Assembly: GCA_964565775.1 (NCBI GenBank) | Contig: CAZMGB010000003.1 | Span: 30,079 to 94,078 of the forward strand | Direction of reading: 5' to 3' | Length of the DNA stretch: 64,000 nucleotides | Source: an uncultured Dehalococcoidia bacterium | GTDB taxonomy: Bacteria > Chloroflexota > Dehalococcoidia > DSTF01 > JALHUB01 | Program-made: the position numbers and the translations under genes | The notes under the pieces: model-generated | Database searches by the model: none | The model's input: the letters and a program-made list of their open reading frames with translations, nothing else | What the model was told of the DNA's origin: nothing | In this document: one piece after another, positions 10,323 through 31,405 of the stretch | Layout: each line of letters begins with the position of its first letter | Numbering within the stretch: the stretch's first letter is position 1

Positions 10323-11186
10323 TCACTTGAGGCCGCGTCTCCCGCCCGCGCGAGGGCCACGCGCCCGGCGCCAGGGCAGGAAGCGACGCCGCTGCTCCGG
10401 CGAAGGCTCGGCCTTAGCAGGTGCAGGCTTTCTCCTTTTCGCAGCGGATCGGAGCCTCGCCAGCTCCAAAGGGTGCTCCTCTTCCATGCGATGGCGCGTG
10501 ATGCGCCCGGTAAAGATGCTCAAGTCCCCCGGGAACTGGCCCGGGCTCAAGAGGACGCTATAGAGATGCCAGGTGGCGATCACCAGCAGGGCCAGCGTCG
10601 CCTCGCCGCCGTGGGCCTCGCGGGCTGCCGCCACCAGCTCCCCTGGGAAGAGCTCCGTGAACACGGTGGGAAACCACAGGATGAGGCCCGTGGCGATCAT
10701 GATGCTGGTGCCGAAGATGACGCCCCAGTACTCGAACTTCTGCCGATACTCATAGCGGTCGAACCTGGGCCGAGCGGGCGCCAGCCCCAACGAGTACCGA
10801 AGCATGGTCAGGGCGTCGAAGAAGTCCTTGACGCTGGGCACCATAGCGGGGCGGAGGCGCCCCCGCAGCGCGGAGAACCCGATCTCGGCAACGTGATAGA
10901 AGGCCTGCCCGATGAGGATCACCGCGAAGACACGGTGGATGAATCGAGCGTTGTCAATGCCGCCCAGTCGATCGATCGTCCACGTCGCCAGAGGCAAGTC
11001 CGGGTATTTCTGCGGCAGGCCGGTAACTACCAGAACTACGAAGCTGGCGAGCAACACAGCGTGCTGAGCCCGCTGACTGACGTTGAAGCGGATGTACCAG
11101 TCTGGCTCGCGCGGCGCAGCGCGGCGCGCCGCCGGTCGCGCGGCCGACCTCGGCCTCCATCGTTCACCCGTCATCGCCGTCCTCAT
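10323..11186 (-). CDS. Dihaem cytochrome b, FdnI/HydC family (paralogue of 5985-6998)
   Basis: Clearly alignable with 5985-6998 ('[10 protein letters not shown]', '[19 protein letters not shown]', '[17 protein letters not shown]'). Confidence 0.8.
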
Positions 11187-11195
11187 GGCAGCCCC

Positions 11196-12434
11196 CTACC
11201 GGTTCCGGGCCAGACGCCACACGTCGAGGGTGATGTGCAATATCAGTCCGCCAATGACCAACGGGATGACGAGCCGGTAGAACCAGCGCACGGCGAAGAC
11301 CATTGGCGTCCGCGACAGGGTGGGTTCATAGTGCGAAAGCCAGGCCGAGGGGAAGTTGGGCCCGGCATCCGGATGGCAGCGCTGGCAGGTAGAAAGCAGA
11401 TTCGCCTTCATAACGGGTGACTGCGAACTCTTCACGCTCACGATGTCATGCACGCCGTGGCAGTCGGTGCAGACGGGCGTGTCCGGCCACACCCGGCTCG
11501 ACTGGCGCTTGTAGAAAGCAAAGGTCTTGCCATGGAAGTCGTCCAGGTAGGTCTTGAGGACGTTGGTGGAGATGCCGTACTTCGACATGCGCTCCTCGTC
11601 ACTGTGGCACTGAGCACAGATGTCCACTGAGCCGAGACGGAAGGCGGGCCTCTCCGGGTTCTCAATCTCATGGACTCCGTGGCAGTCAGTGCACACGGGG
11701 ACGTCCGGGTTGTCTTTGCCCAGAAGAAGGCCGCCGTGGACGCTCTTGGCATATTCGTCGTAGATGGCGCCGTGACAGCTAGCGCACCTCTCCGCTATGC
11801 GCCTTCGGGGCTCGTCCGGCGAGGTGATATCGTGGGACCCGTGGCAGTCGGCGCAGGTCGGAGCCTCCTTTCGTCCCGCCACCAGCACAGCGTAGTGGAC
11901 GCTGTCCAGAGTCTTGGCGTAGTTCTCGAAATGGCAACGGCCGCACACCTGGTAGTAGCCCAGGACATAGTCACGGTGGTTGGCTACCTCGAGCGGCGGG
12001 TGAGGGTAGTGGGTCTGCGCCGGGTGACAGGCGTCGCAGCTCACGCGGCCACCGTGGACCGATTCCTCGAAGGCCTGAATGTCCACGTCGAGGGGAAGCA
12101 CTTCGCCGCTGGCAAATGTGATGCTGAAGCTCCGGTCGCTGTGGCAATCTAGGCACGCGGGCGCGACCTGGGGCTCTCCTCCCCCCTCGTCTGCAGGCGC
12201 TCGGTTCTGAGCAGGCCCGGCGCGAAGGGCTGCGTCGGGCGCGGGCGAGCTGGCAGAGAGCAGTTGCGTCGGACCCTCCGCCTCCGCCGACCCCGAACCC
12301 AGCCACCAGGCTAACCCCCAGCCGAGCATGGCGCAGGCCAGTCCTGCTGCCAGGCCCACCACCCATCGAAGCCACGGTACCGCTCGCGCCGAGGGGTACT
12401 GGCGCCGCGCTCGCATCGTACTACTACCGTTCAC
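11196..12434 (-). CDS. Nonahaem c-type cytochrome with N-terminal anchor and C-terminal TM helix (paralogous, expanded version of 5172-5981)
   Basis: Nine CXXCH motifs. The C-terminal 'FPSAWLSHYEPTLSRTPMVFAVRWFYRLVIPLVIGG' is homologous to the 5172 protein. It sits upstream of cyt b, HK and RR on the same strand with short gaps or overlaps. Confidence 0.8.
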   Translation of the reverse strand: MNGSSTMRARRQYPSARAVPWLRWVVGLAAGLACAMLGWGLAWWLGSGSAEAEGPTQLLSASSPAPDAALRAGPAQNRAPADEGGGEPQVAPACLDCHSDRSFSITFASGEVLPLDVDIQAFEESVHGGRVSCDACHPAQTHYPHPPLEVANHRDYVLGYYQVCGRCHFENYAKTLDSVHYAVLVAGRKEAPTCADCHGSHDITSPDEPRRRIAERCASCHGAIYDEYAKSVHGGLLLGKDNPDVPVCTDCHGVHEIENPERPAFRLGSVDICAQCHSDEERMSKYGISTNVLKTYLDDFHGKTFAFYKRQSSRVWPDTPVCTDCHGVHDIVSVKSSQSPVMKANLLSTCQRCHPDAGPNFPSAWLSHYEPTLSRTPMVFAVRWFYRLVIPLVIGGLILHITLDVWRLARNR

Positions 12435-12698
12435 TTCATTGGCATGCTATCGCGCTCGGGCAGGCGTGGCTATCACCCGGTAGAGCTATTGTGGCTACTC
12501 CCTTTCACATCGCGATGTAGGCCGTTTGGCCCGTCCCCAAAGCTCGCGGAGACGGCAGACACTTCGCCGGCGGCGCCTCAGGTGCACCAGACTCTGCATC
12601 CTTCAGGTGGCCAAATGCATCTGTCGGGGAATAGGCACCGCTGGAGCGTTCCCACTACGATCGATGTCGACGGCAGCCTAGAAATGAAAGGGGTGCAT
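12435..12698. promoter_or_regulatory. Divergent intergenic/promoter region between the cytochrome operon (- strand) and the TPR gene (+ strand)
   Basis: 264-nt non-coding gap between divergent gene starts. A Shine-Dalgarno 'AAAGGGG' lies 7 nt before the ATG at 12699. No promoter consensus could be verified by eye. Confidence 0.3.
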
Positions 12699-13628
12699 AT
12701 GGCGCGAAGCCGCCTCACAGCAATTCTCGAAAGATGGCTGAGCCGTGGCATTCCGCTGGCAGCAGGGCTTGCGATAGTGCTGGGCCTGGCTGCGGCTATC
12801 GTCCTCGTCCAGGACCAGTTCTTCTCCTCTTCCCCCTCCGACTTGGAACGCAACGAGCAGGAGCTACGAGAGGCCATTCTCAAGAGTCCCGACGACCCTG
12901 ACCTTCGCGTGTCGCTGGCCAACGTGTACCTGCAAGAGCAAAAGTACGACGAGGCCATAGCCCAGTACAGCGGCGTGCTGGAGGTCGATGAGAATCGGCA
13001 AGACGCCCTGATGGGCCTGGGTGTGGCGTATCGGGAGACGGGCGACAGCGAGCAGGCCGTCACGGCGTTCACCAAGTTCGTCGAGTTGAACAAGGACAGC
13101 CCGTATGCCGACGTCGACCGCCGGCTGGAGGCCGTTCACTTCTACCTGGGCGAGATCTATTTGGAGCGCAATGAGCCGGACAAGGCGGTGGAGGAGCTGG
13201 AGGCGGCCCTGGCCATTGAGCCTGCCGATGCTGACGCCCTCTACCTCCTGGGCAACGGTCTTCGCGCTCAAGAGGACTACGAAGGGGCGATCGACGCTTA
13301 CGGCCTGGCTACGAGCTTCGTGCCCGACTTCAAGGAAGCGTACGAAGGCATGGCCGCGGCCGCCGATAAGCAGGGCGACTCGCTGACGGCCACCTACGCC
13401 CGCGCCATGGCGCGTCTCTCCTCCGGTGACGTGGACACCGCTGTGCAAGAGCTGGAGGAGGTCGTCGAACAGTCGCCCGACATTGCCGGCGCTTACTTCG
13501 GCCTCGGCTACGGGTACGAGCAACTGGGCCAGACAGACAAAGCCGTAGCCGCGTACCAGAAGTCAGTGGACACCGATCCCCGCCAATACGCGGCCCAAAG
13601 CGCCCTCGCGCGCCTAGGCGCCGAGTAG
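12699..13628 (+). CDS. TPR-repeat protein with N-terminal membrane anchor
   Basis: N-terminal TM 'IPLAAGLAIVLGLAAAIVLV' followed by about seven TPR-like repeats (recurring A..Y...L pattern). The ORF track starts at 12444 but lacks an SD; 12699 is preferred. Confidence 0.7.
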   Translation: MARSRLTAILERWLSRGIPLAAGLAIVLGLAAAIVLVQDQFFSSSPSDLERNEQELREAILKSPDDPDLRVSLANVYLQEQKYDEAIAQYSGVLEVDENRQDALMGLGVAYRETGDSEQAVTAFTKFVELNKDSPYADVDRRLEAVHFYLGEIYLERNEPDKAVEELEAALAIEPADADALYLLGNGLRAQEDYEGAIDAYGLATSFVPDFKEAYEGMAAAADKQGDSLTATYARAMARLSSGDVDTAVQELEEVVEQSPDIAGAYFGLGYGYEQLGQTDKAVAAYQKSVDTDPRQYAAQSALARLGAE

Positions 13629-13636: not shown

Positions 13637-14686
13637 ATGGCTACCGCCAAGCGCTGGAAGCGCATCGACAGCACCGCCTGGCCCAGCAGACGTGGTCTGC
13701 GGCGTCGCAAGAGGGAACGACGCGGCCTCCTCCTAAGAGGCCTGCTCCTTCTCGTCATCCTCATCTTCGGCGGCTGGGCTGCCTGGTACCTGCTGGGGCA
13801 AGTCGGCGAGAAGATCCAGGTGCTGGGTATCACCGCTGGCGCTGAGGGGCCCAGCTACCGGTCGTCAATACCGGATGTCGGACGGCCACTGGCCGTTGCC
13901 ACCAGCCCCGATGGGCGCCTCGTCTACGCAGGCGAGAGCGGCGGCCGCTACGCAGTCCGCATCTTTGACAGGCAGGGCACGGAGGTGGGGAACATCGGCG
14001 CGCCCGATTCGGCTCGGGGCTGGGTTGCCGTGGACATAGCTGTGGCGAGAACCGGCGAGGTGTACGTGGTAGACGGCGTGGGTGGCGGCATCTACATCTT
14101 CTCCCCGGAGGGCGAGTTCCTACGCACCCTGCCGCCGCCAGAAGGCGTAGAGATGTGGGCACCTTCAGCCCTGGCCTTCGATGACACGGGCAACCTGTAC
14201 GTGACCGAGCGGTTCGAGCTCGCTTCGGAGAGCCGACACCGCGTGCTGGTCTTTGGCCCGGATGGCGAGCTGCTCCGGCAGTTTGGTGAGAAAGGCACTG
14301 GCCCTGGCAAGCTCAACTACCCCAGCGGCATCGCTGTAGACGAGCAAGGCCGGGTGTACGTCACCAACATGACGGGTGGCGTGGATGTGTTCACGTCAGA
14401 GGGCCAGTACATCACCCGCTTCGGAGTGGCGCAAGGGGAAGAAGGAGTAGGAGTTGCCCGCGGGCTCGCCCTGGACCAGGAGGGGCGGCTCTACGTGGTG
14501 GACGTCACGGGCCAGCAAGTGAAAGTGTACGACACCACCAGCGATGAGTTTCCGGCCCTCTACTCATTCGGCTCGTTCGGCCTGGAGGGGGGTGAGTTCC
14601 GCTTCCCGGCAGGCGTCGCAGTGGACGCCAGCGGTCGTATCTACGTGGCCGACAGGGAGAACTACCGGGTACAGATATGGTCCTAG
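13637..14686 (+). CDS. NHL-repeat beta-propeller protein, membrane-anchored
   Basis: N-terminal TM, then six repeats of the 'P.G.AVD..G.(V/L)YV.D..N.R.(V/I)...' NHL pattern. Confidence 0.75.
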   Translation: MATAKRWKRIDSTAWPSRRGLRRRKRERRGLLLRGLLLLVILIFGGWAAWYLLGQVGEKIQVLGITAGAEGPSYRSSIPDVGRPLAVATSPDGRLVYAGESGGRYAVRIFDRQGTEVGNIGAPDSARGWVAVDIAVARTGEVYVVDGVGGGIYIFSPEGEFLRTLPPPEGVEMWAPSALAFDDTGNLYVTERFELASESRHRVLVFGPDGELLRQFGEKGTGPGKLNYPSGIAVDEQGRVYVTNMTGGVDVFTSEGQYITRFGVAQGEEGVGVARGLALDQEGRLYVVDVTGQQVKVYDTTSDEFPALYSFGSFGLEGGEFRFPAGVAVDASGRIYVADRENYRVQIWS

Positions 14687-14799: not shown

Positions 14800-16002
14800 A
14801 TGAGAGTAAGCAAGAAAGCAGGGAAATGGTGTGTTGTTCTCGGCCTGGCGATCGGGCTGGTGTCCGCTGCGGCGTTTGGGGCCGTACCCACGGCCTCGGC
14901 TAACGGTGGCCCCCATGGGGGCTACCTCCCCGACACAGACGCGTGTGCCGGGTGTCACAGGGCACATACCGCCGCCGCCGACTTGCTCTTGAAGGAGGGG
15001 ACCACTTCGGACCTCTGCTTCTCGTGTCACGACACCTCGATGGCGACCACCGACGTTCGGGACGGCGTCATCTACGGTACTACTACCCTTCTCTCCGGTG
15101 GCGGCTTCGCCTACGCCCCCGATCCGAACTGGAATGCGGGCACCAACTCCTGGGACTGGAGCACTTCCAACACCGGAGTCGCCACCCACGGCGTCGGCGC
15201 CAGCGGAACTGCTTGGGGCGGGGCCAGTTCAGGCACGGGAGTCACCGGTGTCCTGGAGTGCACGAGTTGCCACAATCCGCATGGGAGCACCAACTGGCGC
15301 ATCCTGCGGGACAACAACAACGGCTACCCTTACGACCCGGCGAAGCACCGCTGGATCCCGGACAACACGGAGCTACTGGACTGGGTTGGCGAGCAGGTTG
15401 TGGCCGTGCCCGATGACACGGGCGCGAAGAACTACACCCGCCAGGACATCGGACCCTACACCGGGCTCGTCACCTTCGGGGCCGGCGGTGAACCGGCTAC
15501 CACGCTGGGCATGAGCGCGTTCTGCGCCACCTGCCACAAGCAGTACCTGACGAAGAGCGGATCCTACGAGTACCCGTCCACCGACGCGGATCACTACGTG
15601 TACCCGGGCACTCAGGATGCCAACGACGGCAACGGCGACGTGGCAAGGTACCGGCACGCGATGCTGCACAACCACGGCTCCCCGGCGAGCTACAGCCCGC
15701 TGCGCAGGGGCGCGGTCGGCACCATCGCCACCGGAGAGGGCGGTGGCGCGCCCACCACCTGTACCGACGGCTTGGACAATGAAAGCGACGGGAAGATCGA
15801 CCTCGCTGACAGTGACTGTGTCGTCGACTACGGCGCTACACCGACGTACACAGCCATGACGTGCCTGACGTGCCACTTTGCGCACGGCAGTGCTGCCGCG
15901 GCCTCAGGGTACGCTGCAAGCGTGGACCCCACGAACGACAACGCCCTCCTCTACTACGACAACCGTGGCGTGTGCAGGGCCTGCCACCAGAAGGACAAAT
16001 AG
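14800..16002 (+). CDS. Secreted hexahaem c-type cytochrome with Asp-rich Cys-bounded loop
   Basis: Strong SD 'AAAGGAGGTG' 7 nt upstream. Signal peptide. Six CXXCH motifs (CAGCH, CFSCH, CTSCH, CATCH, CLTCH, CRACH). 'CTDGLDNESDGKIDLADSDC' is a Ca-binding-like loop. Confidence 0.85.
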   Translation: MRVSKKAGKWCVVLGLAIGLVSAAAFGAVPTASANGGPHGGYLPDTDACAGCHRAHTAAADLLLKEGTTSDLCFSCHDTSMATTDVRDGVIYGTTTLLSGGGFAYAPDPNWNAGTNSWDWSTSNTGVATHGVGASGTAWGGASSGTGVTGVLECTSCHNPHGSTNWRILRDNNNGYPYDPAKHRWIPDNTELLDWVGEQVVAVPDDTGAKNYTRQDIGPYTGLVTFGAGGEPATTLGMSAFCATCHKQYLTKSGSYEYPSTDADHYVYPGTQDANDGNGDVARYRHAMLHNHGSPASYSPLRRGAVGTIATGEGGGAPTTCTDGLDNESDGKIDLADSDCVVDYGATPTYTAMTCLTCHFAHGSAAAASGYAASVDPTNDNALLYYDNRGVCRACHQKDK

Positions 16003-16087: not shown

Positions 16088-17641
16088 ATGAGGCAGTACA
16101 GGCGGGTAGACAAGACCAGGCCCGCCAGCGGGATGCCTCATGCCGCCCGGAGCGTCTCCCGCTTGTGGACGGACCGCCGCACTCTGCCCCGGGCCTGGCT
16201 GCTGGTTTCTGTCCTCGTCGGCCTGGTGCTCGCCGAAGCGACCGTGTGGGGGTGGTTCACCCTCCGTCCCGAACTCGGCCCCTCCGTCATGACCGACGAG
16301 AACTGCAGTCGCAAGGGCTGCCACCAGCGGGCCGCGGACGACGCCGCCATCTACGTGGCCGTAGACGGCAAGGAGATCCTGCCGAACCAGCCCGTCTCGG
16401 TAACAGCAGGCGACCTCTTCGAAGTTGACTTCCATTTCACCGGGATGGTGGGTGACCCAGACCGGTTCAGCCGGGTGGGGATGGAGATCGTTGTGCCGGA
16501 TGACCCGCCCTGGAGAGTAGCGGCCGGCACTCTCGCGCACCCAGAAGAGTGGTCCTCGTCTGGAATAGGCGGCAGCCTCTGGAGCCCGGCTTGGGATCGC
16601 GCCGCCAACGGCGATGGCCCAACCGTCGCCGAGTGGGTGCAGTCGCCGGACCGAGCCAACGCGTACTACCTGAGCTGGGCGGCGGCCGTCGCTGCTGCGC
16701 CCGTCGGCCAGGAGTTCATCCTCAGCAACACGGTGGCCGACCAGGGCACCGACGGCAACGGAGACCCCGACGGCATCGCGGGACACGCCGGCGCCGACGC
16801 CCTAATCGCCGTCCCTCTGGATGCCGAGCCCGGGCTCTTCCACGTCGAGGTCTCGGGCGTCGGGCACACACTGGGACGGAAGCGGGCCAGAGTCTCGGCC
16901 ACCATAGCCATCTCCGTGACGCGGCCGCTGGCCACCGGGCCTTCGGTCACCACAAGGCCCGTCTCGGGCGTCGAGGTCTATCAGGAGAACTGCACGGGCT
17001 GCCACGGCGCCACACCCAACGCCGGCCTTCTGCAGAGTCTGCCCGCGGACGAAGCGGCAATCGCTCAGGCGATCCGCGAGGGCAACGACACCATGCCGCC
17101 ATACGCCTCCTCGGCGGGTGGCCCGTTGAGCGAGGAGGAGATACAGGCGGCGGTTCAGTACCTGCTGAACCAGGCCGAGCTGGCTGAGGTTCCAGGTGCC
17201 AGGCCCATTCCGCACGATGTCGCCGCAGCTTCTGACTGTCTGGCCTGTCACAGCGGCGAGCGGAAGCCCCCAAGCCACGAGACGTACGACGCCGAACAAT
17301 GCCTGAGCTGCCACACTCAGGGACCCGAGTGGATGAAGGGTCCGCCCATCGTCCACAGCCTGGAGAAACACCAGGATTGCCTGCGCTGTCACGTCGCCGG
17401 GGCGCCGATCGGCGTGCCGGCCACACACGCAGGGCGGACGAACCAGGACTGCTTGATCTGCCACGTGCCTGGCCCTGAGATACCTCCCATCCCCCATCCC
17501 CTTCCACCGGAGCCCATCTGTCTGTTCTGCCACGGGCCGGAGGGTAAGGCGCCGCTGCCCCCAAGCCATGAAGGTCGAGGCGAGGACGTCTGTCTCACGG
17601 CCTGCCACAGCCCGGGTGGCGACTCTCAGTCCGAGCCTTGA
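16088..17641 (+). CDS. Membrane-anchored multihaem c-type cytochrome containing a class-I (mono-haem 'CTGCHG...MPPY') domain plus a cytochrome-c3-like C-terminal region
   Basis: Six canonical CXXCH motifs, plus 'CSRKGCH' (CX4CH) and 'CLTACH' (CX3CH). N-terminal TM 'AWLLVSVLVGLVLA'. A start at M16 (16133) is possible. Confidence 0.8.
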   Translation: MRQYRRVDKTRPASGMPHAARSVSRLWTDRRTLPRAWLLVSVLVGLVLAEATVWGWFTLRPELGPSVMTDENCSRKGCHQRAADDAAIYVAVDGKEILPNQPVSVTAGDLFEVDFHFTGMVGDPDRFSRVGMEIVVPDDPPWRVAAGTLAHPEEWSSSGIGGSLWSPAWDRAANGDGPTVAEWVQSPDRANAYYLSWAAAVAAAPVGQEFILSNTVADQGTDGNGDPDGIAGHAGADALIAVPLDAEPGLFHVEVSGVGHTLGRKRARVSATIAISVTRPLATGPSVTTRPVSGVEVYQENCTGCHGATPNAGLLQSLPADEAAIAQAIREGNDTMPPYASSAGGPLSEEEIQAAVQYLLNQAELAEVPGARPIPHDVAAASDCLACHSGERKPPSHETYDAEQCLSCHTQGPEWMKGPPIVHSLEKHQDCLRCHVAGAPIGVPATHAGRTNQDCLICHVPGPEIPPIPHPLPPEPICLFCHGPEGKAPLPPSHEGRGEDVCLTACHSPGGDSQSEP

Positions 17642-17762: not shown

Positions 17763-20700
17763 GTGCGGGGATCTTCCTGCTTGCAAGTGAAAGCGAAGTG
17801 GTTGCATCTACTGGGAGCAGCGGCCGCCCTGGCCGCCGCTGCCCGCGTCTCGCGAGCAGCGCGCGTGTCAGTTGCTGCGCGAAGCGAGCCTCGGCCGACG
17901 ACGAAGGACGCGCCAGCCACGCCCCCTGCGGCGGAGCAACGGCGGAGAGGCCGGTTGCTGCTTCTGGGGCTGGCTCTAGCTCTCGGCCTTACACTCGTCC
18001 TCTCCCCAGTCCTCGCCAACGTTGTCCCTTCGAGCCTACCGGCGCTCCGGCGCGTGGCCGGGCAGCCGGAGTCTGCCCAGGTTGACGGGTCGGAGAGCCC
18101 CCACGGTCCTTTCGACGCCAGCACCGACAAGTGCGCGGCGTGTCACGCCAGCCACACTGCCACAGAGGCGGGACTCCTGACGGGTCGCAACGACGAGGAA
18201 TCTCAGAACCAGATCTGCACCCGCTGTCACGGCCCTGGAGGTGGGGCCGTGCAGGTTTCTACACACTCGAACAAGGGCTATGACGGAGCCACGGAGGCCC
18301 CCTTCTATCAGCTATGTACCGACTGCCACGACCCTCACTCCACGCCCAACGATGAATCGGGCGACAGCGTCAACGACCACCTGATCCTCTCCTCCATCGG
18401 CTCTTTCACGGTGCGCCTGGACGCCCAGTCCGGCGAGGACTCCTATGACGACGGGTTCGACGACGGCGAGCAGGACAGCGTTTGCGTCGCCTGTCACACC
18501 ACCACCAACCACAACACCAACACCAGCACTGAGCTCAGGGGCCAGGGTCACAACCCCGTCGGCACCGACTGCATCTCGTGCCATCCTCACGGCGAGGACC
18601 CGTCGACGCCGAGCGGCTTCATGCCCATCGGAGGAGACTGCCTCGGCTGCCACAGCTCGGCCCAGGGCGACCGCCGCCAGATCGTGGACGACCAGCAGAA
18701 CGGCCAGGGAAACGGCGGCGATTTCGTCCGGGCGTCGCACCACGTGCAGTCGGCGACGGGCACAGTGACCGCGACGGACTGTCTGGTCTGCCACGACATC
18801 TCGCAGCACCAGGGCGGCGATGTCCGCCTGAAGGACCCCGACAGCCCGGAGAGTATCATCGTCTACACCGATGGCGCCTCGCTGGAGAACTTCTGCGTCA
18901 ATTGCCACGACGCCGATGGGGCAGCGCAGGACACGACTCCCTTCAGCGACGGTGTGACGGTGCCCAACGTCAAAGGCCTGTCAGGGAGTACGTGGGCGGA
19001 TTCGGCGCACAAGACCGATGCCGAGAACCCACTGACCTGCTTCGGGGACGGGACGACGGGCTGCCACAGCAACGGCCACGGCTCGAACCTCCGCGCGCTG
19101 CTGGCACCCTACGACGGCTCTCCCGGGGAGGGCAACACCAACGAAGACGAAGGGTTCTGTTACTCCTGCCACGACAGCGACGGGCCCGCCTCCAGCGACG
19201 TTCAGAGTGACTTCGCCAGGCTGTCTCACCACATCGTCGACGGCACGAACGGCACGCAGCTAGAGTGCACCAACTGCCACAACCCTCATACCGCCACGAC
19301 CGCCTCACCGCTCGCCGACCCTGACGCTCCTGCGACGGTGTGGACCGGCGACGAACGTGACTTCTGCCTCCGCTGCCACGATGGTGATCCGCCCTCAACG
19401 GTGGTGTTCCCGGAGAGCGCCGCCGGTACAGGCTGGGACAAGAGCGCCATCGTCGGCACGACTCATGACAGCAGCCTGGGCGGTGTCTGCACCTCCTGCC
19501 ACCAGACGCACGGCGCTGACAACCAGTCACTGCTGATGGGGCAGTACAGCCGGCGCGGCAGCAATTGCGCCGATTGCCATAACCCGCATGGGCAGGATCC
19601 TTCCTACGATCCATCGGAGTACACAGCCTGTTGGCAGTGTCACGATCAGAACCTCGTCGTGCAACAGCCGAACGCCTTTGGCAACAACCACGATGAGCAC
19701 GTCGCAGGCGCCAACACGCCCTGCATCACCTGCCACGATGTCCACGCCCCCTACGACGCCGGAGAGAGCGGCCTCATCGACTTCGGCTGGGCAGACGAGA
19801 ACCGAATCGGCTTCAACTTGTCCTGGGACGGGAACAGCTATGACCTCAGCTCATCCTTCGTCGATAGCGGGGAGAACAAGGGCGAGTGCTACCTGAGCTG
19901 TCACAGCGAGGAGCACGTGCCCGAGGCGTACGAGGGTGTGGAAGTCGACACGACGTTCGGTGGAGCCAGCGCATCCCTACTGGCTCCATCCGTAACGCCT
20001 ACGGCGTCCCTTACGCCCAGCCCGGCAGTCGAAGCCAGTCCGACCCCCACCTCCGTCTTCCCGCCCACGCCGACACCGACACCCACGCCCACGCCGACGG
20101 CGTCGCCCACAGCCACCCTTTCGCCTACGCCATCAGCGACGCCTACTGCCACTCACACCCCTACGCCGACAGCGACAGCGTCGCCCACAGCTCTCGCCAC
20201 GCCGACGGCCTCGCCGTTGCCGGTGCCGGCTCCCGGTCCCGGCCTCCGCCTCGACGGAGACCAGGATCTCTCCGTCCTCGGCGGCGCGCCGGGCGATGGC
20301 GCAGGCTATGCCCTGGCCAGGGGCGATGTCAACGGAGACGGCAGGGGCGATCTGATCATCGGGGCCCGCGACGCCGATGCCGGAGCAAGGATCGACGCCG
20401 GCAAGACCTACGTTATCTTCGGCGCCACCGATCTCCCGCCGACGCTGGATCTATCGGGAGATTCGGTGGGGCTCACCGTCACCGGCCGGGGCGCCGGGGG
20501 CCGCTCCGGAACATCGTTGGCGGCGGCCGACCTGAACGGAGACGGTATCGACGACCTGATAATCGGTGCGCCGGGCGCCGATGCGAACGGCGCGGCGTAC
20601 GGCGGACGAGGCGAAACCTACGTCATCTATGGCGGCGACGATCTGCCCTCGACCATCGACCTCGCGTCCGACTCCGCCGACGTCACCATCTCCGACGGCG

Positions 20701-21932
20701 CTCCGCACGACCTCCTGGGCCATGCCCTGGCGACCGGCGACCTCAACGGCGACGGCCTGGATGACCTGATCGTCGGCGCGCCCTACGCCGACGCCCTGGG
20801 CCGCGGCGGCATCGGCGCGACCTACGTCGTCTTCGGCGCCGACGACCTGCCTTCGCTCGTCGACCTGAGCTCCGCGGCGGACTTCACGCTCTACGGTGAC
20901 GACCCGTACGACCACTCGGGCAGCGCCGTCGCCTCCGCTGACCTCAACGCGGACGGGGTCGACGACCTGATAGTGGGCGCGCCCGCCGCAACAACGTTCG
21001 CTGGCGACGAGGCCGGTGACACGTACGTCCTCTACGGCAACCCCGCCCTGTCGGGCACCTTCGACCTCAGTGGGCGCGCCGCCGACGCGACCATCGCCGG
21101 ACACACCGCCCGCGGGCGCTCCGGCCACGCGCTGGCCGCCGGTGATGTCAACGCCGATGGGCGGGCGGATCTCGTGATCGGAGTGCCTGATGGGGGCGCT
21201 CCGAAGAGGTCCGGCGCCGGGGAAGTCTACATCTTCTACAACGGCAGCCTGCCTCAGGGCAGCCAAGTGAGCGTGAGCGCCGCGAACCTAGCAGTCATGG
21301 GTGACAACACGACTGATCGGGCGGGCTACGCGCTGGCCATCGGCGACGTCAGCGGAGACGGCGTCAGCGACCTCGTTGTGGGGGCACCGGCCGCCGGCGA
21401 GACTTACGTGTTGCGCGGCCGCCCTGACCTTCCCACAGTCCTCGACCTACGCTCTACACCAGCCGATCTGACGGTCTTCGGCGGCCAGAGCGGCGACCGC
21501 TCGGGGTCCGCCCTGGTTGCGGGCGACATCAACGGCGACGGGGCGGGAGACCTTATCATCGGGGCTCCCGGCGCCGACCCGGACGGCCGCGTCGACGCCG
21601 GCGCCGTTCACGCGGTGTATGGCCACGGGGGGGCGGCGCCGGCACCGACGCCTCTGGCGACGGCCACACCCACGCCTCTGGCGACGGCCACACCCACGCC
21701 TGCGCCATCCGCCACCCCAAGCAGCACCCCTTCGCCGACGGACACACCCACGCCTGAGCCAACGATCACACCCACGCTTGCACCGACGAACACATACACG
21801 CCGACGCCGACTGTCACATCGACGCCCACGCCATCCATCACCCCAAGAAGCACCCCTTCGCCGACAGCGAGTCCCTCACCCCCACCGACGGACACGCCAA
21901 TGCCTCCGCCCGTGCCGCCGCCGAGCCCTTAG
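17763..21932 (+). CDS. Giant (1389 aa) cell-surface multihaem cytochrome c fused to a seven-repeat FG-GAP beta-propeller through Pro/Thr-rich linkers
   Basis: N-terminal signal/anchor. About 15 CXXCH motifs plus CX3CH ('CYLSCH'). A PT-rich linker at roughly 19975-20230. Seven FG-GAP repeats ('GDVNGDGRGDLIIGA', 'ADLNGDGIDDLIIGAPGAD', and so on). A C-terminal ~95-aa PT/S-rich tail. Start uncertain (GTG at 17763 or 17787). Confidence 0.85.
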   Translation: MRGSSCLQVKAKWLHLLGAAAALAAAARVSRAARVSVAARSEPRPTTKDAPATPPAAEQRRRGRLLLLGLALALGLTLVLSPVLANVVPSSLPALRRVAGQPESAQVDGSESPHGPFDASTDKCAACHASHTATEAGLLTGRNDEESQNQICTRCHGPGGGAVQVSTHSNKGYDGATEAPFYQLCTDCHDPHSTPNDESGDSVNDHLILSSIGSFTVRLDAQSGEDSYDDGFDDGEQDSVCVACHTTTNHNTNTSTELRGQGHNPVGTDCISCHPHGEDPSTPSGFMPIGGDCLGCHSSAQGDRRQIVDDQQNGQGNGGDFVRASHHVQSATGTVTATDCLVCHDISQHQGGDVRLKDPDSPESIIVYTDGASLENFCVNCHDADGAAQDTTPFSDGVTVPNVKGLSGSTWADSAHKTDAENPLTCFGDGTTGCHSNGHGSNLRALLAPYDGSPGEGNTNEDEGFCYSCHDSDGPASSDVQSDFARLSHHIVDGTNGTQLECTNCHNPHTATTASPLADPDAPATVWTGDERDFCLRCHDGDPPSTVVFPESAAGTGWDKSAIVGTTHDSSLGGVCTSCHQTHGADNQSLLMGQYSRRGSNCADCHNPHGQDPSYDPSEYTACWQCHDQNLVVQQPNAFGNNHDEHVAGANTPCITCHDVHAPYDAGESGLIDFGWADENRIGFNLSWDGNSYDLSSSFVDSGENKGECYLSCHSEEHVPEAYEGVEVDTTFGGASASLLAPSVTPTASLTPSPAVEASPTPTSVFPPTPTPTPTPTPTASPTATLSPTPSATPTATHTPTPTATASPTALATPTASPLPVPAPGPGLRLDGDQDLSVLGGAPGDGAGYALARGDVNGDGRGDLIIGARDADAGARIDAGKTYVIFGATDLPPTLDLSGDSVGLTVTGRGAGGRSGTSLAAADLNGDGIDDLIIGAPGADANGAAYGGRGETYVIYGGDDLPSTIDLASDSADVTISDGAPHDLLGHALATGDLNGDGLDDLIVGAPYADALGRGGIGATYVVFGADDLPSLVDLSSAADFTLYGDDPYDHSGSAVASADLNADGVDDLIVGAPAATTFAGDEAGDTYVLYGNPALSGTFDLSGRAADATIAGHTARGRSGHALAAGDVNADGRADLVIGVPDGGAPKRSGAGEVYIFYNGSLPQGSQVSVSAANLAVMGDNTTDRAGYALAIGDVSGDGVSDLVVGAPAAGETYVLRGRPDLPTVLDLRSTPADLTVFGGQSGDRSGSALVAGDINGDGAGDLIIGAPGADPDGRVDAGAVHAVYGHGGAAPAPTPLATATPTPLATATPTPAPSATPSSTPSPTDTPTPEPTITPTLAPTNTYTPTPTVTSTPTPSITPRSTPSPTASPSPPPTDTPMPPPVPPPSP
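20030..20230 (+). repeat. Low-complexity ACGCC/ACNCC-rich DNA encoding the first Pro/Thr linker
   Basis: Read directly: iterated 'acgcc(g/c)ac' units encoding TPTPTPTPTPTASPTAT... Confidence 0.6.
21648..21695 (+). repeat. Perfect 24-nt tandem duplication (acgcctctggcgacggccacaccc x2) within the C-terminal PT tail
   Basis: Read directly. It encodes TPLATATP twice. Confidence 0.8.
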
Positions 21933-22640: not shown

Positions 22641-23309
22641 TCAGGTTTGACCGGGAGGGGAAAGGGTGGCGAGACCGGTGCGCACAGCATAGGCCGCAGC
22701 CTGAGCCCGGTTCTGCATCTGAAGCTTCTCCAGGATGTTGTGGAGGTGACGCTTGACTGTGCTCTCAGCGATGCTCAGGGAGAGGCCGATCTCCCGGTTG
22801 CTGCACCCTTCCACTACTAGCTGCAAGACTTCCTTCTCGCGTTCGGTGATGCCGCCCTGCTGAGCCGCCCCTCCCGACCGAGACAGGCGGGCGAATTCTT
22901 GTAGCACCCGCGTTGCCATGTAAGGGGTGAGAGCCGCCTCCCCGCTGAGAACGCCCCGCAGCTTCTCGAAGAGACGCGAGGCCTTCAGGTTCTTGAGGAG
23001 GTAGCCATCAGCCCCGGCCTTTATCGCCTCGAACAGGTCGTCATCAGTCTCAGAGACCGTCAGGATGATGATCCTTGTCTCCGGAAGCGCCTCCTTGATG
23101 CGGCGGGTGGCCTCCAGGCCATTCATGCGCGGCATGTTGATGTCCATAAGGATGAGGTCAGGGCGGTAGGACATGGCGAGGTCCACAGCCTGCTGGCCAT
23201 CGCCGGCTTCGGCCACGACCCGCACGTCATCCTGGGCGGCGAGAAGCTGCGCGACGCCCTCGCGGAACAACACCTGGTCGTCAGCCAGAATCACTCTCGC
23301 TGCTGGCAT
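22641..23309 (-). CDS. NarL/FixJ-family response regulator
   Basis: 'RVILADDQVLFREG', 'LILMDINMP', LuxR HTH 'ITEREKEVLQLVVEGCSNREIG'. Confidence 0.9.
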   Translation of the reverse strand: MPAARVILADDQVLFREGVAQLLAAQDDVRVVAEAGDGQQAVDLAMSYRPDLILMDINMPRMNGLEATRRIKEALPETRIIILTVSETDDDLFEAIKAGADGYLLKNLKASRLFEKLRGVLSGEAALTPYMATRVLQEFARLSRSGGAAQQGGITEREKEVLQLVVEGCSNREIGLSLSIAESTVKRHLHNILEKLQMQNRAQAAAYAVRTGLATLSPPGQT

Positions 23310-25428
23310 TACTCACTCCTCCTTTGCCGCTGCTGGGTATACGCGCGGCGACAGTGGTCCCTGCTCCCGGCGCGGTCTCGATCTCCAGTTCGCCGCCGAT
23401 GCTCTCGACGCGCTCCCGCATGGTCTGAAGGCCGAAGTGCGACCCGCGCTCAGCCAGCGCCTCGTGCAGGTCGAAACCGCGGCCGTCGTCCCATACGGAG
23501 GCGAGCATGTGGCCGTCGACGACCTCCAGGCGTACCAGAGCCCGCCCGGCGCTGGCATGCTTGCGCACGTTGGCCAGCGCCTCCTGGACTATGCGGATGA
23601 GCTGGATCTCCGCCGCCGCCGATATGGGGCCAGGAGCCCCGTCTCCCACCAGTATCTCTGCCTGGATGCCAGTCTCCGCCCTGAACTTCGCCACGTACTC
23701 GACTAGCCCCTGGAGTAGCCCTTGCTCCGCGAAGGCCCTGCTTCGCAGCTCAAGGATGGAAGCACGGACGTCGCCGTAGCCGCTTTCGGCGGCTTCCTCG
23801 ATCTTGTCGAGCTGGCTTCGCAGTCCCGCGAGGTCGCCCCGAGCCAGGAGCTCGGCGGCAAGGCCGACCTTGAGCCCCAGGAAACCCAACACCTGGGCGA
23901 GACTGTCGTGCATCTCCCTGGCGATACGGTCCCGCTCCTCGAGGACGGCCAAACGCTGGGACTCCGCGTAGAGGCGGGCGTTCTCGAGTACCAAAGAGGT
24001 AGCGCTGGCGAGCCGCGAGAGGATCGGGCGGGCCTCCGCCGGAAAAGCTCGCCGGCCGCGGCTGCCCACGAGCAGCAGCCCCTCCCGCCGGCCTCCCGCC
24101 ATCAGGGGCGCCGCCAGGAGCATCCGCAACCGGTCCTGCGCCATGGCGGCGGCGAGCTCGGGCGCCAGCGCCTGGGCTGCCCGCCAGCCCAACTGGGCAG
24201 GCTCGTCCCCGCCTGCGAGACCGCCCCCCACCTCCACAGCGGCCGGAGCGAGACGCAAAGCGGCCAGGCTCTTCATCCCGTCTCCACTGGCCGCCCGCGT
24301 GACCAACTCTTCCATCGGCTCGTCGCGCAGCAAGAGCGCCGCCACGTCGGCCCTGAGGAGCCCCCGCGCGCGCTCCACCACCGTGGACAACACCTCGTCC
24401 AGGGCTGTGAGGGCCGAGACATCAGAAGTGATCTTGTAGAAGGCTTCCAGCTCATCGGTGCGCTCCTCCACCACTCTCTCCAGGCGCTGGTTCCAGCGCT
24501 GGGCCTGTCGGTGAGCCCGAGTCCGCGCCCGAAGCGCCTCCTCTTGCGCTTGCAGGCGCTCGGCCGTCGCTCGACGGAGCTGCCGGTCGCGCTCCAACTC
24601 GAATACGTTCAGGATGCGTACGACGAAGAACGAGACCGCCGCCGCCGAAAGAGCCCAGAGGATCTGGGGCGGAATGGCGGTCCAGGTAGTGAAGGTAGCA
24701 TAGTTGAGGACGGAGGCCGGGGGATAGGGCACGGGCGCCACTACGATCGCGGCGACCACCGCCGTCAGCAGGAAGGCCCCCGCTGCCCAGATCGTTTGCC
24801 GGGCGATGTGAGGCATGTTGAGAGCGCGGAAGCCGGAAGCCTGCGTCGCAAGGCCGGCCGCCGCGATGACCGAGCCAGGCAGGAAGAGGAGGTAGCGCGA
24901 CCAGACACCGGCGCTGGTGAGCCACTCCTTGCTGGCGACTACGTATGATGCCGAGGCCTCCCAATGGCAACCCAGGCACGGGCCGGTGGCCGGGAGGCTT
25001 GCGTCGCTGATGGAGGCGTAGAGGCCGCGCACCTGCGGGACGGCGAAGCTCGCCACCCAGATCCCCATCAGACCCACAGGCACCCAGCGGACCCAGCGCG
25101 CCTCCACCGAGCTTCCTTGCAGAAGGCTCACGCCGAACTGGAGGAGAAAGAGGGCCGAGAGGGAGGAGAGGGCAAACGCCAGAACTCTTGCTCCCATGCT
25201 GCCCTCGACGCTCACCCCGTCGGTCGCGACCAGGAGGAACATTACCACCCACTGGGCCGCACCCTGCAACAAGCCGAACGCCGCGAGGTAGCGAAGGCTG
25301 AGGGCAAGCCTGGTGCTGGAGCGTCGCGCCTCCAACGCCACGGCCAGCCCCATGGCGAAAAAGATCAGGCCGCAGACGAAGAAGAGCGCTATCGTGTTGG
25401 TTTGGCTGAGAGTCATTCCGCTCGGCAC
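23281..25428 (-). CDS. Membrane sensor histidine kinase (multi-TM N-terminal domain with CXXCH haem-c motif, GAF, HisKA_3, HATPase_c)
   Basis: Seven to eight predicted TM helices. 'PATGPCLGCHWEAS' lies in a loop at nt ~24964-24978. A GAF-like region. H-box 'ERDRIAREMHDSLAQVLGFL'. 'GRGFD...GLQTMRER'. Confidence 0.85.
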   Translation of the reverse strand: MPSGMTLSQTNTIALFFVCGLIFFAMGLAVALEARRSSTRLALSLRYLAAFGLLQGAAQWVVMFLLVATDGVSVEGSMGARVLAFALSSLSALFLLQFGVSLLQGSSVEARWVRWVPVGLMGIWVASFAVPQVRGLYASISDASLPATGPCLGCHWEASASYVVASKEWLTSAGVWSRYLLFLPGSVIAAAGLATQASGFRALNMPHIARQTIWAAGAFLLTAVVAAIVVAPVPYPPASVLNYATFTTWTAIPPQILWALSAAAVSFFVVRILNVFELERDRQLRRATAERLQAQEEALRARTRAHRQAQRWNQRLERVVEERTDELEAFYKITSDVSALTALDEVLSTVVERARGLLRADVAALLLRDEPMEELVTRAASGDGMKSLAALRLAPAAVEVGGGLAGGDEPAQLGWRAAQALAPELAAAMAQDRLRMLLAAPLMAGGRREGLLLVGSRGRRAFPAEARPILSRLASATSLVLENARLYAESQRLAVLEERDRIAREMHDSLAQVLGFLGLKVGLAAELLARGDLAGLRSQLDKIEEAAESGYGDVRASILELRSRAFAEQGLLQGLVEYVAKFRAETGIQAEILVGDGAPGPISAAAEIQLIRIVQEALANVRKHASAGRALVRLEVVDGHMLASVWDDGRGFDLHEALAERGSHFGLQTMRERVESIGGELEIETAPGAGTTVAARIPSSGKGGVSNASSESDSG

Positions 25429-28910: not shown

Positions 28911-30905
28911 GTGGCTGACATCGGGCACGCGGCTCTGCTGGTCGGGCTGATCATGGCCGCCTATGCGGCGGTCAGCTCCCTCGTGGCGGCCCGCTCTGGC
29001 AACGGGGAGTTGTGGCAGAGCGCCCGCAACGGCGCGTTCGCGGCGTTTGCGCTCACGAGCCTGGCTTCCGGGGCGCTCCTGTACGCCCTCTTCACCCACG
29101 ACTTCAGCATCCGATACGTTGCCGAATACTCCAGCTCAAACCTGGCCCCGATATACATCCTTTCCGCATGGTGGGCCGGTCTTGAGGGCTCCCTGCTGCT
29201 CTGGTGCTGGCTGCTGGCGGTGTTTACAGCGCTGGTGCTGCTCCAGACGCAGCGGCAGAACGTTCGACTGGCTCCCTACATCACCGCAACCATGACAGGG
29301 CTCCTAGCCTTCTTCCTGGGCCTCGTGATATTCACCGCCAACCCATTCGAACGGCTTCCCCAGCCCGCCGCCGAAGGCCTGGGCCTGAACCCGCTGCTCG
29401 AAAACCCGGGCATGATCATCCACCCGCCGGCGCTCTACCTCGGGTTCGTAGGCTTCAGCGTCCCCTTCGCCTTCGCCGTAGCCGCGTTGGTCACCGGACG
29501 CGTCGATGACCAGTGGATCCGCTCGAGTCGCCGCTGGACGCTCGTGGCGTGGCTCTTTCTCGGGCTGGGGAACCTGCTCGGCGCGCAGTGGGCATACGTG
29601 GAGCTGGGCTGGGGAGGCTTCTGGGGCTGGGACCCCGTGGAGAACGCCTCCTTCATGCCCTGGCTCACCGGCACGGCATTCCTGCACTCAATCATGATCC
29701 AGCAACGACGGGGAATGCTGAAGGTCTGGAACATGCTCCTCATCATCGCCACCTTCAGCCTCTGTCTGTTCGGGACCATGGTGACCCGAAGCGGCCTCCT
29801 CTCGTCGGTGCACGCGTTCTCGGGCTCCGCCATGGGGCCTCTGCTCATCTTCCTCATCGCCGTGGTGGCACTGGGCTCTCTATGGCTTCTCTGGAAGAGG
29901 CTGCCCTTGCTGCGAAGCGAGGAGCACCTCGACTCGTTCGTCTCCCGCGAGGCCTCCTTCCTTTTCAACAACGTGCTCCTTGTGGGCGCGGCCTTCGCCA
30001 TCTTCTGGGGGACGATCTTCCCCCTGCTTTCTGAGGTGGTGCAGGGAACGCGAAGCACGGTCGGGCCTTCCTTCTTCGAGCAGGTCACGGGGCCGATCTT
30101 CCTGGCGATACTCGTGCTCCTGGGAGTGTGCCCCCGGCTCGGCTGGCGGAAAGCCTCCGCGAGGAATCTGCTTGGCAGCCTTGTCGTGCCGGTAGCGGCC
30201 GGCCTCACGGTCGCTGTCCTGCTGTACGCTCGAGGCCTGCGACCGCTGCACGCGGTGATAGCGTTCGGCGTCTTCGTGTTCGCTGGCACGGTCATCCTCG
30301 CCGAGCTGTACCGGACGCTGCGGCCCCGGCAGGCGACGGGCCCGACGCACTGGCTCTCCACCCTTCCCAGGCTCTTCGCCGCGAATCGGTCTCGCTTCAC
30401 GGCCTTCATTGCCCACGCCGGAGTACTGCTTCTGGCCATGGGTATCCTGGCTTCCATCACATACAGCGAGAGCGTCGAGGCGACGCTGGCGCCGGGGGAG
30501 AGCGCGCGCATCCAGGAGTACGAGCTGACCTTCTTGGGGCTGAGCCAGTCCAACGCGCCCGACCAGACGGTCGTCTCCGCTGAGCTTGCGGTTCAGGACA
30601 ACGGGAAGCCCTCCGGCACCATGACAGCGGAGAAGAACTTCCACCGGACCTACCAGAACCCGGTGACCGAAGTAGGAATCCGTAGCACCCCCATCGAGGA
30701 CCTCTATGTCGTGCTCGGTAACTTGAACGAGGACGGCTCAGCGAGCTTCCGCTTCATCGTCAATCCGCTCGTGATGTGGCTGTGGATCGGTGGCGGAATC
30801 ATCATTGCCGGCACGGCGATCGCCCTCTGGCCCGATCGATACGCGGAGCGGGCCTTCCGCTGGCGCCCAAGAGAGACAGCGGAAATGGAGCTTGGTCGTG
30901 TCTAG
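28911..30905 (+). CDS. ccmF: Cytochrome c-type biogenesis protein CcmF (haem lyase)
   Basis: Multi-TM protein with the WWD domain 'WGGFWGWDPVENASFMPWL'. 664 aa. GTG start. Confidence 0.9.
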   Translation: MADIGHAALLVGLIMAAYAAVSSLVAARSGNGELWQSARNGAFAAFALTSLASGALLYALFTHDFSIRYVAEYSSSNLAPIYILSAWWAGLEGSLLLWCWLLAVFTALVLLQTQRQNVRLAPYITATMTGLLAFFLGLVIFTANPFERLPQPAAEGLGLNPLLENPGMIIHPPALYLGFVGFSVPFAFAVAALVTGRVDDQWIRSSRRWTLVAWLFLGLGNLLGAQWAYVELGWGGFWGWDPVENASFMPWLTGTAFLHSIMIQQRRGMLKVWNMLLIIATFSLCLFGTMVTRSGLLSSVHAFSGSAMGPLLIFLIAVVALGSLWLLWKRLPLLRSEEHLDSFVSREASFLFNNVLLVGAAFAIFWGTIFPLLSEVVQGTRSTVGPSFFEQVTGPIFLAILVLLGVCPRLGWRKASARNLLGSLVVPVAAGLTVAVLLYARGLRPLHAVIAFGVFVFAGTVILAELYRTLRPRQATGPTHWLSTLPRLFAANRSRFTAFIAHAGVLLLAMGILASITYSESVEATLAPGESARIQEYELTFLGLSQSNAPDQTVVSAELAVQDNGKPSGTMTAEKNFHRTYQNPVTEVGIRSTPIEDLYVVLGNLNEDGSASFRFIVNPLVMWLWIGGGIIIAGTAIALWPDRYAERAFRWRPRETAEMELGRV

Positions 30906-31395: not shown

Positions 31396-31405
31396 GAGGC
31401 AACAG

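Follow-up and report, generated by a model that had tools for sequence, protein, structure and literature searches.

A predicted exported multihaem cytochrome joined to a seven-bladed FG-GAP propeller by Pro/Thr-rich linkers, encoded in a cytochrome gene island of a metagenomic contig

We have analysed a 64,000-nucleotide stretch of DNA (the window) from contig CAZMGB010000003.1 of an uncultured Dehalococcoidia bacterium (assembly GCA_964565775.1), mainly focusing on one giant gene at 17763..21932 of the plus strand. This is a single unbroken open reading frame (ORF) of 1389 amino acids (aa) with a GTG start, containing no stop and no change of frame, and its product is predicted to be an exported protein in which a haem 'wire' and a seven-bladed propeller with Ca loops are joined by stalks rich in Pro and Thr (PT). 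Taking the protein together with its gene neighbourhood, we consider it somewhat more likely than not that the gene product is exported to the cell surface and serves there as an electron conduit within a pathway of extracellular electron transfer (EET), positioned by a non-redox binding propeller. The features of the gene, all on the plus strand, are as follows:
17763..21932, plus strand, whole gene: predicted exported multihaem cytochrome, PT linker, FG-GAP propeller and PT tail, 1389 aa
17763..17948, plus strand, N-terminal Arg/Ala-rich extension, aa 1-62, with the motif KWLxxLGxAAALA
17949..18017, plus strand, hydrophobic helix of 21-23 residues, aa 63-85, after RRRGR; Sec signal peptide or uncleaved signal-anchor
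18090..19967, plus strand, cytochrome c domain of the multihaem type, aa 110-735; 17 haem sites are predicted in it, and it matches Paired_CXXCH_1, Cytochrom_c3_2 and Cytochrome_C7
19038..19067, plus strand, atypical CX7CH site CFGDGTTGCH, aa 426-435 (C426-X7-C434-H435)
19122..19748, plus strand, MtrA-like stretch, aa 454-662
19566..19580, plus strand, extra, clade-specific haem site CADCH, aa 602-606
19887..19904, plus strand, CX3CH site CYLSCH, aa 709-714, in a C-terminal beta-rich subdomain
19983..20240, plus strand, PT-rich linker 1, aa 741-826
20241..21638, plus strand, FG-GAP beta-propeller of the integrin-alpha type, aa 827-1292, each of its seven blades having a Ca-loop motif
21639..21929, plus strand, PT-rich C-terminal tail, aa 1293-1389

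The original prediction for this gene had placed an N-terminal anchor and about 16 haem sites ahead of a PT linker, with seven FG-GAP repeats and then a PT tail after it, all in one gene, and each of these elements was found where it had been located. The G+C content at third codon positions is 0.70-0.84 in each of five gene segments, and Pro/Thr codon usage is alike along the gene. The linker and the tail, previously given as about 85 and 95 aa, measure 86 and 97 aa, and both consist to 86% of Pro, Thr, Ser and Ala; neither a sortase motif nor a transmembrane (TM) helix was found in the tail. The start codon is uncertain, GTG at 17763 standing against TTG at 17955 (aa 65) in the Logan/public call. 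Since the motif KWLxxLGxAAALA is kept in frame upstream of the called start of an ortholog described below, the extension of aa 1-62 is probably translated and cytoplasmic. The helix that had been called an anchor is present at aa 63-85, but it may instead be a cleavable signal peptide, because its -3/-1 pattern V-L-A/N (the slash marking the cleavage point) resembles the A-x-A-type sites of homologs; this reading of the N-terminus was made by inspection against homolog N-termini, and not by a predictor.

The haem domain contains 15 CXXCH motifs within aa 124-654 plus one CX3CH, the set that had been predicted, and 34 of the 35 cysteines sit in haem-type motifs. When aa 100-740 were shuffled, a mean of 0.11 and a maximum of three CXXCH were obtained, and on these counts, a family-model match and the conservation of positions in homologs we reject a low-complexity origin of the motifs. 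The earlier figure of about 16 haems is correct for the 16 motifs listed, but it overlooked the CX7CH at aa 426-435, so that the probable number of sites is 17. In an alignment of 60 homologs, the corresponding position is CX2CH in 23, CX7CH in 15 and CX8CH in 20 sequences, with C-x-G-D-G-x-x-x-G-C-H as a consensus (alignment A1). Because CX2CH occupies this position in 23 homologs, the CX7CH is most likely the 17th haem site, probably a standard site enlarged by a Gly/Asp-rich loop. A literature search on the terms CX7CH and CX8CH found no paper; they may represent a type of haem-attachment motif that has not yet been described, and it is possible that the operon's CcmH/CycH-like TPR gene is connected with it. 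Fifteen of the 17 sites are kept in at least 58 of the 60 homologs and the CX3CH is found in 40, while CADCH at aa 602-606 is missing in 59 and has been seen in no protein other than that of the window and the ortholog.

Family models place this domain among multihaem cytochromes (MHCs): PF09699 (Paired_CXXCH_1) gives 93.7 bits against a cut-off of 20.6 in four stretches, and TIGR01905 gives 72.1 bits against 25.2, above its curated threshold; a NapC/NirT match of the giant protein is sub-threshold only. Within aa 454-662, seven successive CXXCH align in register with seven of MtrA, and an elongated MtrA-like fold agrees with what was found for the domain. The domain has 23 His outside the motifs, 14 of which are conserved in at least 70% of sequences, so bis-His ligation of all haems is feasible.

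The seven FG-GAP repeats of the original prediction, with their predicted Ca sites, are borne out by the match to PF01839 (FG-GAP; E=1e-55, 185 bits, seven stretches) and by D-x-[NS]-x-D-G-x-x-D loops in all seven blades, with a period of 60-70 aa and a mean of 0.05 in shuffles. An AF2 model built from a 50-sequence alignment is a closed all-beta structure of seven blades with four strands each (pLDDT 94, pTM 0.94), and its best Foldseek matches in PDB are integrin alpha heads (E about 1e-19, TM-score 0.64-0.72); a sequence match to integrin alpha5 was also obtained (E=1e-17). Identity to secreted, free-standing bacterial FG-GAP proteins is 45-52%. Precomputed Pfam lists of the nearest free-standing relatives include PF00404, which we take to be dockerin, PF18962, TSP_3 (PF02412) or PF00353, and these lists fit an extracellular protein- or glycan-binding role of the propeller. 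Since the propeller has no redox cofactor motif and a linker separates it from the haems, it is likely to be a binding module outside the electron path.

Because the PT-coding DNA is repetitive, because the closest unfused homologs finish in a PT tail, and because the window stems from a metagenome-assembled contig, it had to be considered whether two genes, one for a cytochrome with a PT tail and the other for a PT segment with FG-GAP repeats, had been joined artificially through PT-coding repeats or a frameshift; a frameshift or assembly error had been allowed for in the original prediction itself. The uniform codon statistics within one frame argue against this. The Logan assembly of run SRR14802573 (locus L008) corresponds to window 15522-25641, the whole gene included, without a mismatch in 10,120 nt; the NCBI contig (220,884 bp) and the Logan contig compared here probably derive from the same reads, so this agreement over 10.1 kb is that of a second assembler. 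PT linkers 1 and 2 have only short imperfect repeats in common. In addition, the same fusion was found in two relatives, a syntenic ortholog from a different organism and the locus L006 (L006:1-2262, Logan SRR10519414), in which a cytochrome fragment, PT linker, propeller and PT tail are encoded in one frame. The artefact reading is effectively refuted, and we give it almost no weight.

The ortholog (P0241; gene at L007:2556-7343, Logan SRR14802573) was recovered by an exhaustive HMMER search of 1.84 billion representatives. It has 1595 aa and aligns to residues 2-1189 of the window protein in one stretch with 64% identity (73% in the haem domain and 56% in the propeller), and carries all 17 haem sites, the PT linker, seven FG-GAP repeats and the second PT linker. 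About 290 additional C-terminal residues comprise a cohesin (Pfam E=3e-7) and two TM-like segments, which hints at a cohesin-dockerin assembly of surface cytochromes. The synteny of L007 includes a 521-aa cytochrome upstream, and response-regulator/kinase pairs and CcmE downstream; L005 and L006, from two other runs, show 82% DNA identity over the downstream regulators. The domain composition of the giant protein, its homology, its synteny and its fold matches are what the present analysis shows.

The loci L007 and L008 come from the same run, SRR14802573, and hence two distinct organisms with orthologous loci, whose giant genes have 64% protein identity, co-occur there; the sample accessions led to no environmental source. 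In L007 a rhodanese gene and a 123-aa gene follow P0241. The window has ORFs of matching length 16-18 kb off, a 111-aa rhodanese at 37638-37973 and a 123-aa ORF at 39550-39921, which were matched by length and the rhodanese domain only.

The fusion is rare. No FG-GAP was found in the top 120 homologs of the cytochrome domain, and no cytochrome domain in the top 120 homologs of the propeller; a survey of 536 retrieved proteins and 88 loci, those from a scan of JGI metagenomes among them, brought up no further fusion. When the 88 loci were scanned for open frames with at least three CXXCH and at least three Ca loops, only the window locus (L008) and L007 were detected. The JGI scan was dominated by the generic DLNGDGID pattern, and all of its 80 loci were FG-GAP only, while a pattern scan of species-representative genomes gave only a partial, 32%-identical match in Nitrospirae. 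Two proteins examined as candidates for further fusions, P0098 and P0110, were rejected, since their Ca-loop-like motifs are thrombospondin type 3 repeats and not FG-GAP. A literature search found no description of a multihaem cytochrome fused to FG-GAP, and a preprint on peat MHCs and a paper on Carboxydothermus contributed no information about such fusions; the architecture had been called undescribed, which stands as far as publications are concerned, but it is not unique, being shared with P0241 and L006, and fusions to binding modules of a non-redox kind recur in its cytochrome family.

The haem-domain family has at least 236 members that could be detected, and those with a name come, among others, from Planctomycetota/Phycisphaerae, Anaerolineae, Bacteroidales, Gemmatimonadota and Latescibacterota. 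Over the haem domain, identity is 50% to the closest homologs, P0001 (891 aa) and P0002 (778 aa), and 32-53% across the 60-sequence alignment. These two unfused and uncharacterised family members share with the window protein the same signal sequence, CX3CH as the final site and a C-terminal PT-rich region, and their haem sites match except for the clade-specific one at aa 602-606. In P0001 and P0002, however, a PT tail of 100-250 residues ends the protein without a propeller, whereas in the window protein the propeller lies within the PT region. Because its closest unfused relatives end in this way, the window protein looks like the product of setting a propeller cassette inside a PT region; PT tails of this kind were found in 6 of 120 listed homologs. 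In the loci of P0001 and P0002, from groundwater and other metagenomes, the genes upstream, for TPR, NHL and an MHC of about 500 aa, are those found also in the window, which differs in an additional 517-aa cytochrome gene between the two MHC genes.

Other members differ in further modules. The wire has been lengthened by tandem duplication of a module of 4-5 haems in P0003-P0008, P0251 and P0320, and fusions to non-redox modules comprise an N-terminal NHL propeller (P0331), CBM6/35 (P0271), the lectin fold Laminin_G_3 (P0096), Ig-like domains (P0046) and the cohesin of P0241. P0331 has within its cytochrome polypeptide the NHL propeller that is a separate upstream gene in the window, which supports a physical NHL-cytochrome interaction. 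Module swapping is the rule in this family, which evolves by exchanging binding modules and haem cassettes. Since CBM6/35, Laminin_G_3, Ig-like and cohesin are extracellular binding modules, an extracellular location of the giant protein is also likely.

The genes surrounding the giant gene form a cytochrome island, whose relevant members are listed here:
12444..13628, plus strand, membrane-anchored TPR protein, with a CcmH/CycH-type TPR match of 50.6 bits against a cut-off of 42
13637..14686, plus strand, N-terminally anchored NHL-repeat beta-propeller, an operon partner
14800..16002, plus strand, secreted 6-haem cytochrome with weak MtrA similarity; the MHC encoded upstream of P0002 is a homolog of it (30% identity, E=8e-23)
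16088..17641, plus strand, membrane-anchored 517-aa cytochrome with eight haem motifs; it has a class I domain of the cbb3/c6 type and a stretch weakly resembling MtrC domain II, and it is also present in L007
5172..6998, plus strand, 5-haem c7-like cytochrome and cytochrome b561/Ni_hydr_CYTB membrane protein, a candidate quinol-oxidising module
10323..12434, minus strand, second cytochrome b (Ni_hydr_CYTB) and 9-haem cytochrome pair, the MHC being weakly similar to OcwA of Thermincola (6i5b, E=1.6e-4)
22641..25428, minus strand, LuxR-type response regulator and GAF/HisKA_3 histidine kinase, convergent to the giant gene
28911..36669, plus strand, cytochrome c maturation System I: CcmF, an ABC ATPase beside CcmB (probably CcmA), CcmB, CcmC-like, thioredoxin-fold and DsbD/CcdA-like proteins

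The giant gene is the last of a co-directional set following the TPR, NHL, 6-haem and 8-haem-motif cytochrome genes, and the order TPR-NHL-MHC-MHC recurs in unrelated metagenomes (loci L002 and L004), around P0002 (groundwater) and around P0001. NHL and NrfG-like TPR proteins have been noted beside EET cytochromes (10.1101/2022.05.06.490989). The TPR protein of the window is possibly an apocytochrome chaperone. In total the island has six multihaem cytochromes, two cytochrome b genes and ccm genes, and similarities of the neighbouring cytochromes to MtrA, MtrC domain II and Thermincola OcwA are weak. A NapC/NirT-like cytochrome is also encoded upstream in the island, and both this cytochrome and the pairs of cytochrome b and MHC resemble quinol-oxidising entry modules. 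Such split pairs of cytochrome b and multihaem c are presumably akin to the CbcL-type quinol:cytochrome modules of Geobacter. Three LuxR/HisKA_3 two-component pairs lie in the island region, and because the pair at 22641..25428 is kept beside the gene in L005 and L007, it is a candidate for its regulators. A promoter and terminator scan of 12-22.6 kb gave nothing above shuffles, and Pfam scans of the operon, the island and the homolog loci gave no match to a beta-barrel/porin family of the MtrB/DmsF type, no dedicated barrel predictor having been run.

Several side observations were made on the island. The MHCs of both Ni_hydr_CYTB pairs, with five and nine haems, carry N- and C-terminal TM segments. 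At aa 319-341 the 6-haem cytochrome has an insert, CTDGLDNESDGKIDLADSDC, that matches NF033662, an 'acidic double-disulfide repeat', below threshold (25.7 bits, cut-off 41; E=6.7e-6); the insert is absent in the aligned L002 homolog. Two paralogous small proteins (22094-22525 on the minus strand and 4550-4918 on the plus strand; 37% identity, E=5e-21) have no Pfam match; the former adjoins the LuxR/HisKA_3 pair and the latter lies in the island several genes from the nearest pair, and a 136-aa gene occupies in L005 the position equivalent to 22094-22525. They may be an uncharacterised regulatory partner. A phage-integrase-family gene (7-660, plus strand) is found at the left edge of the island; mobility of the island is not indicated, since the GC content is uniform across the window. 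At 47217-49523 on the minus strand, 25 kb from the cytochrome operon, there is a quinol-type nitric oxide (NO) reductase (NorB with a fused cytochrome c-like domain), which is relevant to the processes that the electron chain may supply or draw upon.

An EET role of the giant protein fits this island. An export signal (the helix after RRRGR) and maturation genes (ccm at 28.9-36.7 kb) are both present. In the scheme that we propose, the apoprotein would be exported by the Sec system by means of its N-terminal hydrophobic helix, and Ccm System I, encoded 7-14 kb downstream, would attach 17 c-type haems, with possible assistance of the operon's TPR protein at the atypical CX3CH and CX7CH sites. 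The haem domain may then form an elongated, largely bis-His, MtrA-like wire. MtrA holds ten haems over about 8 nm, and scaling from it would give a length of roughly 12-14 nm; a PT segment of 86 residues, when stretched out completely, could lengthen this by as much as about 25 nm. Electrons would reach the wire from the cytochrome b and MHC pairs and the NapC/NirT-like MHC, the 8-haem anchored and 6-haem soluble operon cytochromes relaying them from the membrane modules. The propeller would serve as a Ca-dependent binding head on an extended and probably O-glycosylated PT stalk, fastening the wire at its free end to a solid target, and the giant protein would be the largest and outermost element of the EET chain. 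Where the protein is located, how far its haem sites are filled, which way the electrons run, what the propeller binds, whether the stalks are glycosylated and what the physiology is are points that we infer, as is the role of a terminal reductase or contact cytochrome suggested in the original prediction. As to geometry, we lean, with well under even confidence, towards a wire near the membrane and a distal propeller binding an envelope glycan, an S-layer or an external surface, the tether being either the N-terminal helix or the anchored NHL and cytochrome partners.

Several observations weigh against this reading of the protein. The organism is represented by metagenomes alone. The score of the model TIGR03508 (DmsE/MtrA) falls far short of its cut-off (57.5 versus 192.2 bits), all matches being partial, and the structural model of the haem domain, built without haems, is moderate (pLDDT 74) and gave no PDB match in Foldseek. 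We know of no ligand for any bacterial FG-GAP propeller of this type. In L006, the equivalent of aa 248-291 (window 18502-18627, 88% DNA identity) runs straight into the PT linker (window 19950 onward), so that this relative apparently lacks the equivalent of aa 292-731 with 12 haem sites and yet keeps the propeller; since the junction regions of the window have no common 8-mers, a natural in-frame deletion is more likely than a repeat collapse, the short variant being seen in one 2.3-kb contig. The organism is probably a Chloroflexota, but this taxon, and through it the envelope type, was assigned from GlgB matches only, the named matches being metagenome-assembled genomes of Dehalococcoidia/Chloroflexota with 78-80% identity. 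The acetyl-CoA synthetase at 43353-45272 on the minus strand falls, by comparison, in a cluster of at least 90% identity with Gemmatimonadales sequences, which could reflect horizontal transfer, mis-binning in public records or a wrong taxon inference. With regard to orientation, the N-termini of homologs look cleavable, having short n-regions and A-x-A-type sites (VTA/GE, AKA/GE and ALA/DI, with VLA/NV in the window protein), and the cohesin and two TM-like segments at the end of P0241 suggest C-terminal anchoring.

These last points favour the main rival to the geometry that we prefer, in which the signal is cleaved, the C-terminal propeller and PT tail anchor the protein, and the 17-haem domain is distal as a terminal contact reductase; the closest unfused homologs likewise have a C-terminal PT tail as their only possible retention element. 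The window protein and L005, however, have neither a C-terminal TM helix nor a sortase motif nor a cohesin, and the 62-aa Arg-rich extension with its helix of 21-23 residues resembles the uncleaved signal-anchors of the neighbouring NHL protein and 517-aa cytochrome. A wire located beyond an 86-aa non-conductive stalk would also be cut off from the membrane donors unless other cytochromes bridge the gap, and we regard this arrangement as possible but rather doubtful. In a second rival reading the flow is in the opposite direction, and the same hardware takes up electrons into the respiratory chain, e.g., for denitrification steps, their source being Fe(II) or reduced minerals, humics or a partner cell. 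MHC wires such as MtrCAB are reversible in principle, the window encodes the quinol-type NO reductase at 47217-49523, and the class I domain of the operon's 517-aa cytochrome is of the cbb3/c6 type, which typically has a high potential. The sequence sets no direction, and the window yielded no marker of the Cyc2 or MtoA type; uptake is compatible with a conduit, and we consider it unlikely, though worth keeping in mind.

A catalytic role is far less probable. Cytochrome-propeller combinations do occur in enzymes, and a nitrite, sulfite or hydroxylamine-type multihaem enzyme could be imagined, with a propeller that helps to bind the substrate, as that of cd1 nitrite reductase or hydrazine synthase does. 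In some genomes an FG-GAP gene lies between homologs of hydrazine synthase subunits (PMC12758564). The giant protein, however, has no CXXCK and no Nrf or HAO family match above the curated cut-off, and its conserved His suffice for bis-His ligation at all haems; a disordered linker of 86 aa between propeller and haems is unfit for a shared active site, and the closest homologs are without a propeller altogether. We regard it as slightly more improbable still that the haem domain polymerises into an OmcS/OmcE-like filament whose fibre is decorated by propellers. A bolder form of the conduit proposal is that the propeller is an outward Ca-dependent receptor docking the wire on a specific external partner, i.e., a bacterial 'electro-adhesin', and that CX7CH/CX8CH is a haem-attachment motif not named before and matured with help from the CcmH-like TPR protein. 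This is a speculation to which we give a low probability; if it is true, an integrin-like contact module would gate or target direct electron exchange, and the partner could be either a polymer associated with minerals or another cell's surface.

How electrons cross the envelope and reach solids in bacteria without an outer-membrane conduit of the Shewanella or Geobacter type is still poorly understood. Large cytochromes are abundant but uncharacterised in Chloroflexota genomes (10.1101/2021.08.23.457424), and EET is reported for Ardenticatena (PMC5808234). The present locus offers a compact and testable candidate for envelope crossing and contact in a monoderm-type EET system, with a complete island of quinol-oxidising modules, intermediate cytochromes, maturation genes and regulators, and a largest cytochrome having its own stalked head. 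The unfused homologs, the ortholog with cohesin and TM segments, the variant short in haems and the fusions to NHL, CBM and Laminin_G modules provide a natural experiment on module roles, and the substitution of CX2CH by CX7/8CH at one haem position provides a lead for the specificity of cytochrome c maturation.

Comparison with known systems shows where the giant protein is related to them and where it differs. The closest analogue of the propeller is the integrin alpha head, and both have seven FG-GAP blades and Ca-binding hairpin loops. Integrins are known to have Ca loops in the last three or four blades only, whereas all seven blades have one in the window propeller, and its N-terminus is fused to a cytochrome, unlike in integrins. 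Since the thigh and calf legs, the C-terminal TM helix with cytoplasmic tail, and a nearby gene resembling the beta subunit are all missing, the protein is not an integrin proper. For the haem part, the closest characterised analogue is MtrA/DmsE (MtrCAB of Shewanella, PDB 6R2Q chain A), which has 10 haems in contrast to the 17 of the window protein with its atypical CX3CH and CX7CH and its fused linkers and propeller. There was no match of the giant protein to TIGR03507 (OmcA/MtrC), nor did a PDB sequence search yield MtrC or OmcA.

In the wall-spanning model for Gram-positive EET of the Thermincola type, multihaem cytochromes form a chain that conveys electrons from membrane to surface through the wall (PMC6703420), a concept shared with the present proposal. 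Thermincola OcwA (PDB 6I5B) has nine haems, and similarity to it was detectable, weakly, only in the 9-haem neighbour in the island and not in the giant protein. To our knowledge, OcwA carries neither an adhesion module nor a PT linker. In ANME archaea, MHC-A/B/C are large cytochromes fused to S-layer, peptidase-M6-like or pectin-lyase-like domains, and it has been proposed that they let electrons pass an outer layer which is not a membrane, and that they perhaps take part in partner recognition; dedicated Ccm genes lie nearby (PMC9012536). Differing from MHC-A/B, the window protein has no Pfam match to the S-layer domain (DUF1608) and no C-terminal TM helix, while P0241 has its two TM-like segments. 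PT stalks are not mentioned in the ANME description, and the likeness is conceptual, with no sequence relationship shown. The ANME proteins are the closest conceptual precedent for a giant cytochrome with a non-redox surface module, but they belong to another domain of life and have other accessory domains. The finding of a cytochrome-propeller fusion overturns no current concept: the combination of modules and the PT-stalk layout are undescribed, rare and confined to a small clade, whereas the principle, the cytochrome family and the logic of the island are established or abundant in databases.

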